The translations under genes and the position numbers were made by a program. Positions 3,436-9,757 of a DNA stretch of 42,071 bases are shown piece after piece; within the stretch, counting starts at the first letter, position 1, and every line of letters begins with the position of its first letter. The DNA lies in contig JASHVN010000280.1 of assembly GCA_030044555.1 (NCBI GenBank), positions 1-42,071 of the forward strand. Reading direction: 5' to 3'. This DNA is from Xanthobacteraceae bacterium (GTDB lineage: Bacteria; Pseudomonadota; Alphaproteobacteria; Rhizobiales; Xanthobacteraceae). The notes under the pieces are model-generated. The model was not told the origin of the DNA. It ran no database searches and saw nothing but the letters and a program-made list of their open reading frames with translations.

Positions 3436-4092
3436 TCACGCCACCATCACGCGCTTGCCGTCGATGCGGACATCTTCGGTCACACTGATGACCTTGCTGT
3501 GCGCCGTCTCGGTGGCGATTCCGGAAATGCTGGTCGACTGCATTTCCGCCTGCAGCGAGTCCATGCGATCGACGATGGCGAAGCGCTCGACCGCCTTGAC
3601 GGTGAGCGTGTCGGCGCTGGTTTCCTGCACACGCGCCGAACTGCGCAGGCGGTCGGCGATCAGGGTATAGAGCTTTCCGACCCAGCTCGCGCGCTCGGCC
3701 AGAACGGCCAGCAGCTTGGCTTGCAGATCGAGGCTGTCGGCGCGCAGCGACATGCGCTGGCGCGCCGCGATAGCGACCGTCTCGCCTTCGATCGACAGAT
3801 TGCCGCGTCCCGGTAGGCTCACCACGCTCCAGTTGGCGCCCTCGCGCTCGAGCACGCTGAGCACGAAAGCCCGCGCGGCATCGCAGTAGAGAAGCACACG
3901 ATCACCCGGCAGCGGCCGCACTAGGCAACTGACCGCGACCGTAGCCTGCCGCCGCATCCCGGAGAATTCGACACCGACGTTGGCGCCATCGTCATCCACG
4001 CTGACGACACCGGCGAGCTGAAGCCCGGCGGGCGGCTCGCTTTCGAGGGTTTGCATGATGTCGGCGCGCACAGGCAAGTCGGCAGAGGTCAT
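3436..4092 (-). CDS. DUF3540-like protein of vgrG/DUF2169/pentapeptide accessory clusters
   Basis: 218-aa ORF with coding-like GC3. Size and position (after the PAAR-like and pentapeptide genes) match my memory of DUF3540 family context. No catalytic motif recognised. Confidence 0.5.
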   Translation of the reverse strand: MTSADLPVRADIMQTLESEPPAGLQLAGVVSVDDDGANVGVEFSGMRRQATVAVSCLVRPLPGDRVLLYCDAARAFVLSVLEREGANWSVVSLPGRGNLSIEGETVAIAARQRMSLRADSLDLQAKLLAVLAERASWVGKLYTLIADRLRSSARVQETSADTLTVKAVERFAIVDRMDSLQAEMQSTSISGIATETAHSKVISVTEDVRIDGKRVMVA

Positions 4093-4111
4093 GGGTAAAT
4101 CCTCAAAAACT

Positions 4112-6585: not shown

Positions 6586-9500
6586 CGCGCGCCACCAATA
6601 AGATCGTTCGATTGATGTTGGCGTTGCTCAGGTCGGCCGCATCAAGCGCCGAGTCCATGAGATCGCTGCTGAACAGATTGGCGTGGCGCAGATTGGCGCC
6701 GCGCAAGTCGGCCTTGTTGAGGCGTGCCTCGAGCAAATTGGCGGCGTAGAAATCGGCACCGCGGAGATCGTTCGCGGAAAGGATCGCACCTTTCAACGAA
6801 GCCATGCGGAACGCCGTCTGCGCTAGCGTCGCCTTGCCGAAATAGGCGCGATCCAACCGCGCCATGCTGAAGTCGGCGCCGCTGACGTCGGCATCGAGAA
6901 AGGAAAGCGTCGCCGCCGCTGTACTGCCGGTAAAGCGCGCCCCCGTAAGGTCGGGGCAGGCTATGAAGCAGACCGTGTGGAGTTGCGAACCGGAAAAATC
7001 GAGTTTCGGCGCGGAAGCCTTGAGGAAGCAGGTCCGCTCGAGCCGCGCGCCGGCAAAGCCAGCGCCGGATAGTGTGACGTCCATGAATTGCGTGCGCTGG
7101 ATCGTCGCGCCATCCCAGGCGCTGTTGTCCAGCGGCGTTTGCATGAAGCAGCACTGCTCGACTTGCGCCGAGCGGAAGCTTGCTCGCGTGAGCGACACTT
7201 TCATCACTTGCAGGCTGTGAAGCTTCGCTTGGTCGAACGATGCGCACTCCGCGCGCGCGCCGAGAAACTTCGTACTGACAAGCTGCGCACCTGCAAACCG
7301 CGTGCCCCGGCAATCGGCCTTGCCGAGATTGGCCTCCGTCAGGTCAGCGTTGCTCATGTCGGCGTTGAGGAGAATCGCTCCGGCAAGCGTCGCGCCGGCG
7401 AAATTGGTCCCGGCGAGCTTGGCGCCGGTCAGGTTGGCGCGCTCGAGAAAGGCGCCGGAAAAGTCGGCCTGCGCGAAATTTCGCCCCGACAGATCGGCAC
7501 CGGCGAGGTCGCGGCCGGCCATGGCGCCGCCGCTGCGAAATTCCTGCTCGACGATGTCGCCCAGCGCACGCGCCACCGCCGGGGCCAGCGGCGTGTCAGG
7601 CTTGAGCGGTTCGGGCGACATGCGCCGAGCTGCCGCCATGCCGGCTTCAAGCTGCTCCTCGGCGCGGTCGATGCCGGACCGCGCCTCCGCCAGGCCCTCC
7701 TTTATTTTGGTATCGGCGGATGCTATCGCCGACTCGATATCTGTTGCTGCTATTGCAGGCTTGGCGGGTTGGCCGTCTAGCGCTGCGCCCAATCCAACGA
7801 ACGCTTCGAGCGGCGTCTGTTCACTCGTCCCCAGCGCCGGCAGCGCCTTGACCAGAGCCGTTTCTGCCTCCGCGAGCGACGTCCGTAGTTTCTCCAGAGC
7901 TTCCGCCGGCACGTTGGGCTTTGCGGCTTGTGCCACAATGGCGTCGATTGTCAGCTTGGGCGGCGGTGCGGGCGGGGCGTTGCGGGCCTCCTCGGGAAGA
8001 GCGATCGGCGGCATTTCAGGCAGGGAGAAGGCATCTCCGGACAAGGCTTCGCGCACCATCGCGAGCGGCCGGCCCTCCGACAGGGAAAAGAAGCGTGCAC
8101 GCGCCAATCTAAGCTGTTCGCTCTCGTCGACGGCGGGGCGGGCCGCCTGAACCATTTCGTTGCGCCAGTTTTTCGCGCGGTCGAGGTTACTTTCGAGTTC
8201 AGCGATTTTGGCTGGATCGGTCTGTGGCGGCACATTGGGGAGGGCGAGCATTTGCGCCAATGCCGTGTCCATCGGTGCATCGGGTACGCCGATGGCCGCT
8301 AACAACGCGTCGATATCCTCAGGCTCGCCTTCACCGCTGGAAATTTTTTTCAATGCCGCGCGCATCGGTTCGGTCTCGGCGGCCATCTTCTCTATGTCAG
8401 CCTGGACCTTGGTCTGTATGGCATCCAGCGCGTCGAGGATTTCCGCAAGGTCGATTTCGCCGCTCTCGAGTTCCTCGGGCAGCAGTTCGAGGACACTAGG
8501 CCCTGGGTCAGGCGGCGGGATATTAATCTGCGGTCGCAGCGCTTCCGGCAGCGCCAAGCGGTCCAACTCCTGCTCAACGACCCACTGCATCGACGCCTGG
8601 CGGCGGACGGCGCGCTCCTTCGCCATTTGGCGCCGCCGCGCCGCGCGGCGCTCCAATTCGGCTTGCGGCAGGCCAGGCGCCAGCTGGTGCTCTGAGAAGG
8701 CGTAGCGCGCGGCTGTGGCCTTATCGAGCCGCAGCCGGCGTACTTCCAGATAATGCTCGAACGGGCGCGGCGGATCGTTTTGCCGCTCATAGGCCAGCAT
8801 GATGTCGGCGACGTCGCTGCCATCCACGGTCTCGACGCCGACGGCCGCGCGATAAATAAAAATGCCGCGCCGCGCTCCGGCAAACAGCCACAGCGTATCA
8901 ATGCGGGTCGGCAATTCATCAACGCCGCGCGCGGTGTCCTTCCAGCCGATAAAGCAGCGCACCCGGAAACTCGGCAAGTGGCCTTGGATCAGCGGCTGAT
9001 CGGCCGAGAAGTTCTGCAACGCGTAGGGTTCGCCTCCGGAAAGAAAGCCGCCAAGGCGCTGATCCTGTGGTGCGAACAGAAACAGCCGCGGATCGGCGTC
9101 GGTCGCCAAACCCGGCGCAATCTTCTTCAGCCAGGCGCTGTCATAGGTGCCCGCGTATTGCAGTCGCTCCTTGGCATCGAATGCCATCGGTCCGAATTTT
9201 GCCGACGGCGGCATCTCTTCGATAAGCCGAATCGCCTGCTCGGGAATCTCCAAGTTCGGCAGGGCCACCGCCTCGCCGCCCATGGAGCGGGCCAGAGCCA
9301 GATGACCCGCGCCGGCCGGATTGGCCGCGTAGCTGGGGCCGCCGAAGGCACGGTTGGGGGCAAGCGGCATCTGGAGAAACGGGTGCGGTGCAGTCTGCCG
9401 CCAGCCGGACGATGTCATCTGCCAGTAGCGGTCGCCCGTCACCAGGATTTGCTTGCGGATCGGGGGTATCGCCCAGCCCAGCATCATTTGCGCCGTCGGC

Positions 9501-9757
9501 TGTCCGCCTGGCGCGGCTGCGTGACCGCCGACCAGCACTTCGGCTTGCGGCTTGGGCATCCCGATGTCGAGGGCAGTGCCGGGCGGCAGCTCCTTGGCGG
9601 CCAGTATCCACAAGCCCTGGTCGCCCTCGAAGCGATCCGGGCTCGGCGCCGCCAGATCGAACATCGCGAAAATGGACAGGATGAGGCTCGCGCCAGGCGG
9701 GCGGCGCTCGCATTTGCTCAGAAATCCGAGGCTTCGGGGCTTAACAAGGGTGGGCAT
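6575..9757 (-). CDS. DUF2169 domain protein fused to a long acidic/Ala-Pro-rich linker and a C-terminal pentapeptide-repeat domain
   Basis: 1060-aa ORF. The N-terminal ~330 aa carry DUF2169-type motifs (LVTGDRYW...PHPFLQMPLAPNRAFGG...ANPAGAG). Residues ~380-720 are low-complexity and E/A/P-rich. Residues ~730-1060 are pentapeptide repeats (ADLSGRNFAQADFSGAFLERANLTGAKLAGTNFAG...). Confidence 0.85.
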   Translation of the reverse strand: MPTLVKPRSLGFLSKCERRPPGASLILSIFAMFDLAAPSPDRFEGDQGLWILAAKELPPGTALDIGMPKPQAEVLVGGHAAAPGGQPTAQMMLGWAIPPIRKQILVTGDRYWQMTSSGWRQTAPHPFLQMPLAPNRAFGGPSYAANPAGAGHLALARSMGGEAVALPNLEIPEQAIRLIEEMPPSAKFGPMAFDAKERLQYAGTYDSAWLKKIAPGLATDADPRLFLFAPQDQRLGGFLSGGEPYALQNFSADQPLIQGHLPSFRVRCFIGWKDTARGVDELPTRIDTLWLFAGARRGIFIYRAAVGVETVDGSDVADIMLAYERQNDPPRPFEHYLEVRRLRLDKATAARYAFSEHQLAPGLPQAELERRAARRRQMAKERAVRRQASMQWVVEQELDRLALPEALRPQINIPPPDPGPSVLELLPEELESGEIDLAEILDALDAIQTKVQADIEKMAAETEPMRAALKKISSGEGEPEDIDALLAAIGVPDAPMDTALAQMLALPNVPPQTDPAKIAELESNLDRAKNWRNEMVQAARPAVDESEQLRLARARFFSLSEGRPLAMVREALSGDAFSLPEMPPIALPEEARNAPPAPPPKLTIDAIVAQAAKPNVPAEALEKLRTSLAEAETALVKALPALGTSEQTPLEAFVGLGAALDGQPAKPAIAATDIESAIASADTKIKEGLAEARSGIDRAEEQLEAGMAAARRMSPEPLKPDTPLAPAVARALGDIVEQEFRSGGAMAGRDLAGADLSGRNFAQADFSGAFLERANLTGAKLAGTNFAGATLAGAILLNADMSNADLTEANLGKADCRGTRFAGAQLVSTKFLGARAECASFDQAKLHSLQVMKVSLTRASFRSAQVEQCCFMQTPLDNSAWDGATIQRTQFMDVTLSGAGFAGARLERTCFLKASAPKLDFSGSQLHTVCFIACPDLTGARFTGSTAAATLSFLDADVSGADFSMARLDRAYFGKATLAQTAFRMASLKGAILSANDLRGADFYAANLLEARLNKADLRGANLRHANLFSSDLMDSALDAADLSNANINRTILLVARDVN

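Follow-up and report, generated by a model that had tools for sequence, protein, structure and literature searches.

A Class III Tvp spike-tip operon from a Xanthobacteraceae bacterium that probably also encodes the distal half of a split VgrG

On contig JASHVN010000280.1 of the Xanthobacteraceae bacterium assembly GCA_030044555.1 (positions 1 to 42,071 of the forward strand, the 42,071-nucleotide stretch referred to here as the window), five genes run head-to-tail on the minus strand from 9757 to 3436, divergent from the core genes of a type VI secretion system (T6SS). They were originally predicted, from the sequence alone, to form an orphan module of DUF2169, pentapeptide-repeat, PAAR-like, beta-helix and DUF3540 proteins, detached from vgrG and of unknown payload or function. 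By their domains, four of the five genes are the published Class III Tvp set of spike-tip chaperones, also known as TagAB-TagB-TagD-TagC. The fifth gene, here called ORF4 (4112-5071), is not an independent beta-helix gene but a piece of vgrG, as its family profile, its colinearity with longer VgrGs and its slot in the operon indicate. As a whole, the region is probably a Class III Tvp operon with an added gene for the distal half of a VgrG that is naturally split; this half would dock non-covalently on a hub encoded elsewhere in the window.

Results

The 319-amino-acid product of ORF4 matches no Pfam family above threshold, and a weak match to the Gp5_C repeat alone (E 0.0024) was observed. 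It has an N-terminal FVRIVVPE...SSYLRLGAY motif, a variable linker rich in serine and threonine, a core of beta-repeats and a predicted C-terminal helix. I considered the N-terminal 'YLRLGAY' as a possible MIX motif and dropped this candidate, since it does not fit the MIX motif. The protein is rare, with 21 clusters among 5.8 billion in a word-indexed search, and the named clusters all belong to Bradyrhizobium. A family profile built from these 21 sequences and searched exhaustively against 1.84 billion representatives yielded 81 relatives. In about 20 of them, 724-1035 amino acids long, the profile aligns to the C-terminal part. In the strongest of these it does so over its whole length (profile positions 4-348), covering the C-terminal third of VgrGs with 830-1035 amino acids, for instance residues 508-871 of the 877 in relative P0032 (E 5e-66); end-to-end matches are likewise found at residues 574-913 of 928 in P0036 and 573-932 of 947 in P0040. 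All 20 long matches tested against Pfam carry Phage_GPD, and most also an oligonucleotide/oligosaccharide-binding (OB) fold domain, both within residues 20-500, which identifies the long matches as VgrGs. With phmmer, the domain of the window's own VgrG was detected in 25 of the 81 matches, while about 30 of the 56 matches lacking such a hub are complete stand-alone proteins that start at profile position 1-4. These profile alignments show that ORF4, along its entire length, shares homology with the C-terminal domain found in one subfamily of long VgrGs. Searching the PDB sequences with the same profile gave chance matches alone, and neither BLASTP nor hhalign produced a convincing match to the canonical Class III VgrG of Escherichia albertii pEA5_1; the homology is therefore claimed for this specific subfamily of long VgrGs and not for all Class III prisms.

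The counterpart of ORF4 appears to be the 494-amino-acid VgrG of the T6SS cluster (29374-30858), the sole VgrG within the window. It contains Phage_GPD (7e-58) and Phage_base_V (1.4e-5) and no other Pfam domain, and it aligns to residues 15-455 of the 643-amino-acid VgrG1 of Pseudomonas aeruginosa. Only 28 residues remain past the OB fold, and its end, '...SGAFLEIFDGPV', corresponds to the initial strand of the beta-prism base. A C-terminal trimeric beta-prism within the same polypeptide, as expected of a VgrG, is absent, a state that had been missed before. When this protein (VgrG-N) and the ORF4 product are concatenated, the result runs colinear with the fused VgrGs; identity is 31-37% over some 480 N-terminal and 21-31% over some 300 C-terminal positions. 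VgrG-N ends just past a conserved '...SG-x-x-FEI-x-DG' motif; past the same motif, the fused VgrGs continue with a variable linker of 10-90 residues and then 'YVRL...SY(L/I)RLG-x-Y', which corresponds to the N-terminal motif of ORF4. The summed length of both parts (494 + 319 = 813 amino acids) is near the 700-800 amino acids of Class III VgrGs. The virtual fusion aligns straight through the junction to residues 439-525 of the VgrG structure 6sjl from enteroaggregative Escherichia coli, with 'FLEIFDG' placed on 'LRMEDKRG' and 'FVRIVVPE' on 'EEHIKL', the first rungs of the prism. As the two halves lie 24 kb apart on opposite strands, the split is not an artefact of assembly.

Related loci show both the fused and the split state. 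In Azorhizobium doebereinerae (L020), one uninterrupted open reading frame (ORF) downstream of tvpAB-tvpB, between the DUF4150 gene and tvpC, covers both VgrG parts, and tvpC is followed by a gene with tetratricopeptide repeats (TPR), a homologue of orf118 (the small gene behind vgrG in the window), hcp and clpV. The metagenomic contig that encodes P0032 (L021) is arranged like the window, with tssF-E-C-B-A divergent from tvpAB-tvpB-paar-vgrG-tvpC-TPR-orf116, and its full-length vgrG (877 amino acids) occupies the exact slot of the window's 319-amino-acid gene. The split order tvpAB-tvpB-paar-ORF4-tvpC-TPR is kept in 15 Bradyrhizobium species, on a plasmid and on metagenomic contigs. At 10 of those 15 Bradyrhizobium loci a vgrG-orf118-hcp trio is located 2-5 kb away, and each of these ten VgrGs is 493-504 amino acids long and ends 2-10 residues past the (I/M)(Y/F)DG motif. 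Pairwise ratios of non-synonymous to synonymous substitution rates (dN/dS) among these loci are 0.26 for ORF4, 0.23 for TvpC, 0.19 for the cone and 0.18 for VgrG-N, which shows that both VgrG halves are under purifying selection. Together with the conserved break point and the stand-alone relatives, this selection means that the split of vgrG is old, recurrent in the family and maintained.

The plasmid locus (L003) is on the conjugative plasmid pBs162S2a of Bradyrhizobium septentrionale (NZ_CP088289.1, 178396-210058), where the six-gene cassette and a short vgrG are 22 kb apart, with IS5, IS110 and IS3 insertion sequence (IS) elements and the type III secretion system (T3SS) effector gene xopAG between them. 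Carriage on a plasmid indicates that the split spike genes are mobile, amid symbiosis and effector genes. The idea that the cassette travels on Bradyrhizobium plasmids as a mobile tip without hub is weakened by that short vgrG on the same plasmid. A megablast search of the window's operon against plasmids gave no match. On the 2.58-Mb replicon of Rhizobium jaguaris (NZ_CP032695.1), matches to TvpC (351878-352495) and VgrG-N (353566-355056) share a strand and are about 1.07 kb apart, which leaves room for an ORF4-like domain, and no feature of the PLSDB table lies under either match; this locus is probably another fused member.

The coordinates and spacing of the five genes on the minus strand were confirmed. 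An overlap of 11 nt is shared by tvpAB and tvpB, the gaps that follow are 3, 35 and 19 nt, and a further 4 nt separate the operon from the TPR gene, whose position had been given correctly; it had been set outside the operon, however, while it is an operon member in every relative. The six-gene order recurs in relatives and the genes are under purifying selection: the operon genes are real. The genes of the spike module are:

6575-9757, minus strand: tvpAB (tagAB), 1060 amino acids; DUF2169 chaperone domain, long linker and C-terminal pentapeptide repeats
5509-6585, minus strand: tvpB (tagB), 358 amino acids; stand-alone pentapeptide-repeat protein, conserved in position
5107-5505, minus strand: PAAR-like DUF4150 / PIPY cone (TagD), 132 amino acids; without effector extension
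4112-5071, minus strand: vgrG-C (ORF4), 319 amino acids; predicted distal part of VgrG past the OB fold, as a gene of its own
3436-4092, minus strand: tvpC (tagC), 218 amino acids; DUF3540, conserved in position
1668-3431, minus strand: TPR-GT9, 587 amino acids; TPR at about residues 10-330 and a GT-B domain like that of glycosyltransferase family 9 (GT9) at residues 335-587; conserved sixth gene of the operon
29374-30858, plus strand: vgrG-N, 494 amino acids; gp27-like hub and gp5 OB fold, no prism
30878-31234, plus strand: orf118, small conserved gene without Pfam family

The T6SS core starts at 11321 on the plus strand and is complete, with tssA, B, C, F and G, fha, tssJ, K, L and M, tagF, a PP2C phosphatase, a Ser/Thr kinase, vgrG, hcp, clpV, a sigma-54 activator and a second kinase. 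The operon had been described as divergent from this core and about 20 kb from vgrG, and indeed the distance from the operon start to vgrG measures 19.6 kb; as the operon itself holds the distal half of vgrG, "orphan" and "detached" do not apply to it.

Annotation of the six proteins with hidden Markov models from Pfam bore out the domains assigned before, and those of NCBIfam contributed no further domain. In the 1060-amino-acid protein, DUF2169 spans residues 25-303 (Pfam, 1e-69) and pentapeptide repeats cover about residues 745-1050; its orthologues, 59-66% identical, head the same operon at all related loci. The 358-amino-acid protein consists of pentapeptide repeats throughout (Pfam Pentapeptide, 2e-38). 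The 218-amino-acid protein matches DUF3540 (2e-28; 100 bits against a cut-off of 27.9 bits), and a search of PDB sequences with this TvpC gave no match. In the cone protein, Tox-PAAR-like/DUF4150 (5e-31) fills residues 13-119 of 132, which leaves no room for a toxin domain and agrees with the claim that it lacks a toxin extension; its sequence contains 'VPVPYPN', of which PVPY fits the P(I/V)P(Y/F) motif as defined for PIPY cones by Sachar et al. (JBC 2025, PMC11883445). These authors showed that DUF2169 proteins chaperone such DUF4150 cones onto VgrG, and termed the combination of a DUF2169-pentapeptide fusion, a pentapeptide protein, DUF3540, DUF4150 and vgrG 'synteny type C'. In the window, the DUF2169-pentapeptide fusion, TvpB directly downstream of it, DUF3540 and the PIPY cone are all found. 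The adjacent single VgrG of 700-800 amino acids with extended beta-prism, which also belongs to Class III, is not: no vgrG adjoins the operon.

The roles of the pentapeptide and DUF3540 proteins had been considered not established, an assessment that is outdated by the work of Monlezun, Earl and Coulthurst on Serratia marcescens (EMBO J 2026, PMC13373197), who named TvpAB, TvpB, TvpC and Paar1. TvpAB, TvpB and TvpC are each essential there for firing and Hcp secretion that depend on VgrG1-Paar1. TvpC is predicted to be a trimeric OB fold with a short beta-prism, a mimic of VgrG, and a pre-complex arises when TvpAB and TvpB wrap the tip that TvpC forms with Paar1 (the 'wrap / seat-belt' model), in which VgrG1 later displaces TvpC; neither TvpAB nor TvpB was ever detected as secreted. 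Class III systems accompany VgrGs of 700-800 amino acids with unusually long prisms, and the extended C-terminus of Serratia VgrG1 is tied to membrane depolarisation, with the spike tip proposed as the delivered entity (PMC13373197). In Burkholderia T6SS-5 the same genes are tagAB, tagB, tagC and tagD, and TagAB and TagB are needed for assembly of the sheath. As the four genes match this published set, the general role of the module is no longer unknown.

No recognisable toxin or immunity gene had been seen in the region, and none was found with Pfam or NCBIfam among the six proteins or the small flanking ORFs. The ORFs downstream of the TPR gene belong to no family and are not conserved at the related loci. 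NCBIfam matches of the Qnr, MfpA, HetL and PipB type stay far below their cut-offs, with the best of Qnr/MfpA at 46-86 bits where 240-500 are required. Of the earlier guesses about the pentapeptide proteins, that of a sheath around the spike comes close to the published wrap model, whereas cargo and DNA mimic are not supported by these scores.

Every relative, split or fused, has the TPR gene in its operon; the canonical Class III locus (L004), that of E. albertii pEA5_1, lacks it. Pfam detects TPR families in the 587-amino-acid protein. Because a PDB profile search with the alignment of its homologues was dominated by the TPR parts, it was replaced by a Foldseek search with an AlphaFold2 model of the C-terminal 253 residues (predicted local distance difference test, pLDDT, 86). 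This search retrieved GT-B enzymes, the GT9 heptosyltransferases WaaF (1psw), a Veillonella GT9 (3tov) and WaaC (2h1h), at a probability of about 1.0 and template-modelling scores (TMq) of 0.51-0.63, the highest for 3tov (0.63). The donor-binding motif D-[ST]-x3-H-[VL]-A-G-A-[LM]-G is conserved in 16 homologues, and a homologue with 32% identity is annotated as GT9 and carries PF01075, for which the window protein scores 17.3 bits, below the cut-off of 22, over 33 residues. The second accessory, orf118, follows vgrG-N in the split loci, where its copies are 56-61% identical, and follows the TPR-GT gene in the fused loci at 34-35% identity (L020, 13463-13795; L021, 15167-15517). By conservation of gene neighbourhood, TPR-GT9 and orf118 are lineage-specific accessories and fixed members of the spike module of this VgrG subfamily.

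Between the operon and tssA, divergent from tvpAB, the plus strand (9848-11066) encodes a 92-amino-acid ORF without family, an RsbW-like HATPase_c_2 anti-sigma-type kinase of 136 amino acids (10126-10536) and a single-domain response regulator of 144 amino acids (10632-11066). Another contig (L002) has an RsbW-like gene, 71% identical, and a response-regulator-SpoIIE phosphatase, also divergent from the operon, which suggests that a partner-switching regulator is linked to the spike module. A sigma-54-type -24/-12 element (TGGCACGCCGGTTGCG, one mismatch) lies at 31363-31378 on the plus strand, about 60 nt upstream of hcp, and a GAF-sigma-54 activator is encoded in the T6SS cluster (34925-36631, plus strand); the promoter pattern is not enriched across the window, nor is it found upstream of tvpAB. 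On the plus strand, at 26864-29194 and 36641-37978, the cluster also contains tagF, genes for the PP2C phosphatase and an FHA protein, and two for Ser/Thr kinases. One kinase, of 305 amino acids (28277-29194), is a kinase domain only. These genes point to a checkpoint by threonine phosphorylation in which one kinase is additional. At its far end the cluster is flanked, on the minus strand, by genes for a ParA/MinD-like ATPase (38031-38798) and a PAS-PAS hybrid histidine kinase with two receiver domains (39566-41926).

Discussion

The closest known system is the Class III Tvp locus of S. marcescens Db10 (vgrG1-tvpAB-tvpB-tvpC-paar1; PMC13373197), which is equivalent to the Burkholderia T6SS-5 tag genes and to synteny type C. 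It has in common with the window the four accessory families, a small cone without toxin, the lack of a classical effector and the link to a T6SS core. However, the window has paar before tvpC, and instead of one VgrG of 700-800 amino acids encoded upstream of tvpAB it has a 494-amino-acid hub 24 kb off and a 319-amino-acid gene within the operon. The distal domain is of a separate subfamily whose members have an insert rich in Ser/Thr, TPR-GT9 and orf118 are added, and an immunity gene of the DUF3192/Vai1 type is missing.

I propose that VgrG-C would trimerise into a distal spike, a beta-prism-like body with a Ser/Thr-rich loop, to be capped by the DUF4150/PIPY cone. Within TvpAB, the DUF2169 domain would shield the cone's hydrophobic face, and the pentapeptide helix, together with that of TvpB, would wrap the tip; TvpC, by analogy with Serratia a VgrG mimic made of an OB fold and a short prism, may scaffold this pre-complex. 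The loaded tip could then dock non-covalently on the prism-less VgrG-N hub in the baseplate, probably by pairing of the 'FVRIVVPE' strand at the N-terminus of VgrG-C with the strand 'FLEIFDG' at the C-terminus of VgrG-N, while the chaperones would remain in the cell. As no separate toxin is encoded, the delivered entity would most likely be the spike tip itself, as proposed for Serratia VgrG1. A hub without prism to hold the cone, a cone gene directly upstream of ORF4 and chaperones of a kind that wraps a prism tip together argue for a structural role of ORF4.

Several points weigh against this proposal, in which the binding of VgrG-C to VgrG-N is predicted from sequence. The AlphaFold2 monomer model of ORF4 has a pLDDT of 41, which could be expected for an intertwined trimer and proves nothing; owing to this low confidence, the model was left out of the fold search. 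The resemblance of the ORF4 core to gp5-type prisms is weak, as seen in the Gp5_C match mentioned above and in hhalign probabilities of 37% for a canonical prism and 0.2% for the Class III VgrG of E. albertii; on the prism regions of the canonical VgrGs P0086 and P0099 the ORF4 profile gives E values of 1e-4 to 7e-4 (hmmsearch). In the fused relatives, hub and C-terminal domain are separated by a low-complexity linker of 10-90 amino acids, which is also compatible with an effector-like domain on a tether and does not call for a rigid continuation of the spike. Moreover, the genome beyond the window could encode other, full-length VgrGs.

Alternatively, the 319-amino-acid protein could be a cargo effector that derives from the C-terminal domain of an evolved VgrG, is loaded via the PIPY cone and the Tvp proteins and acts on target membranes once delivered, rather than a structural extension of the spike. 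A flexible linker as in the fused relatives is also seen in evolved VgrGs with effector domains, the match of the core to canonical prisms is weak, about 35 C-terminal residues of ORF4 are predicted to be helical with a hydrophobic end, and membrane depolarisation has been tied to the extended C-terminus of Serratia VgrG1 (PMC13373197). I nevertheless consider this unlikely, as the VgrG-N hub would then have no prism for the PAAR-like cone, no conserved immunity-like gene adjoins ORF4, the gene sits in the vgrG slot between paar and tvpC, and its repeats and the alignment at the junction resemble the start of a prism. A distal spike and a cargo effector may also overlap in one protein, as they might in the tip of Serratia VgrG1, a suspected membrane-depolarising agent.

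The originally suggested payload, some 690 residues of pentapeptide beta-helix with a DNA-mimic fold secreted by an orphan module, seems very improbable. T3SS effectors (PipB2), like DNA mimics, do have such repeats, the two proteins have partial NCBIfam matches of this kind, and no other payload is visible. However, every one of these scores is far below its cut-off, TvpAB and TvpB of Serratia are required for Hcp secretion, are modelled around the spike tip and never appear in secretomes (PMC13373197), and TagAB and TagB of Burkholderia are needed for sheath assembly. That a rearrangement merely broke vgrG and left ORF4 and the short vgrG as non-functional remnants of a degenerating T6SS locus, for which the passing mention of split vgrG loci in Acinetobacter (PMC6838775) and the IS elements near some related loci could be adduced, can practically be dismissed: the window and 10 Bradyrhizobium species have the same break point, both halves have dN/dS values of 0.18-0.26 like neighbouring genes of essential type, both ORFs are intact with tight operon spacing, and about 30 diverged cluster representatives stand alone.

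Spikes assembled from pieces are familiar from contractile phages: T4 has gp27, gp5 (cleaved to gp5* and gp5C) and gp5.4, and P2 has the hub gpD and the spike gpV. In these, hub and needle are separate polypeptides that assemble non-covalently under a small cone cap, an organisation which the genes of the window suggest as well. The break differs, as in the window it follows the OB fold (gp27 plus OB fold / prism), in P2 it lies between gp27 and OB fold and in T4 it arises by proteolysis; dedicated Tvp chaperones further set the window's system apart from both phages. Among T6SSs, separate genes for the N- and C-terminal parts of VgrG have been mentioned in passing for some Acinetobacter strains (PMC6838775), where one locus is split and a Tvp context or evidence of conservation or selection is not given, unlike the window, with its halves in different operons on opposite strands and a break point conserved across species. 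In the literature searched, neither a Tvp system whose VgrG is split nor one that has a GT9-like partner was found, and the Acinetobacter remark was the only record of split vgrG.

The conserved TPR-GT9 gene raises the question, open to experiment, of whether a T6SS spike is modified post-translationally. Protein glycosyltransferases of the GT9 family include the autotransporter heptosyltransferases TibC and AAH, and TPR-glycosyltransferases are known, such as FlmG of Caulobacter. As in these, the window protein joins protein-binding repeats to a GT-B/GT9-like domain with donor motif and is encoded near a Ser/Thr-rich beta-repeat protein; in contrast to these, its glycosylation activity is hypothetical, its Pfam GT9 match is below the gathering threshold and its GT-B N-lobe is reduced (253 amino acids in total). 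The linker of the ORF4 family is 18-52 residues long and 30-56% Ser/Thr. It is conceivable, albeit doubtful, that TPR-GT9 glycosylates this loop of the VgrG distal domain or another component of the spike tip. Circumstantial points in its favour are the strict co-occurrence of TPR-GT9 with this VgrG subfamily, split and fused, and the GT-B fold with intact donor motif; no literature on glycosylation of VgrG was found. If true, this T6SS spike would be the first known to be glycosylated, a parallel to the GT9-family heptosylation of autotransporter beta-helices, and the split would let the tip (prism and cone) be modified and chaperoned free before it docks onto a generic hub.

These observations overturn nothing that is known, but supply a natural system for dissecting tip assembly and hand-over. 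The Class III model holds that a chaperoned tip pre-complex is built on TvpC and handed to the real VgrG, and a free-standing distal spike would be a natural test of this hand-over: the hub is not needed to express, purify or model the tip, and docking is genetically separable from assembly of the tip. If the spike is indeed split, VgrG could do without covalent linkage of its OB fold to its prism, which is relevant to the engineering of exchangeable T6SS tips. The system is found in Bradyrhizobium, Azorhizobium and relatives, and the T6SS of Bradyrhizobium LmicA16 is reportedly needed for efficient nodulation of Lupinus (as cited in PMC11872809). With no effector evident at these loci, the spike tip is a candidate for the delivered entity of effector-less rhizobial T6SSs.

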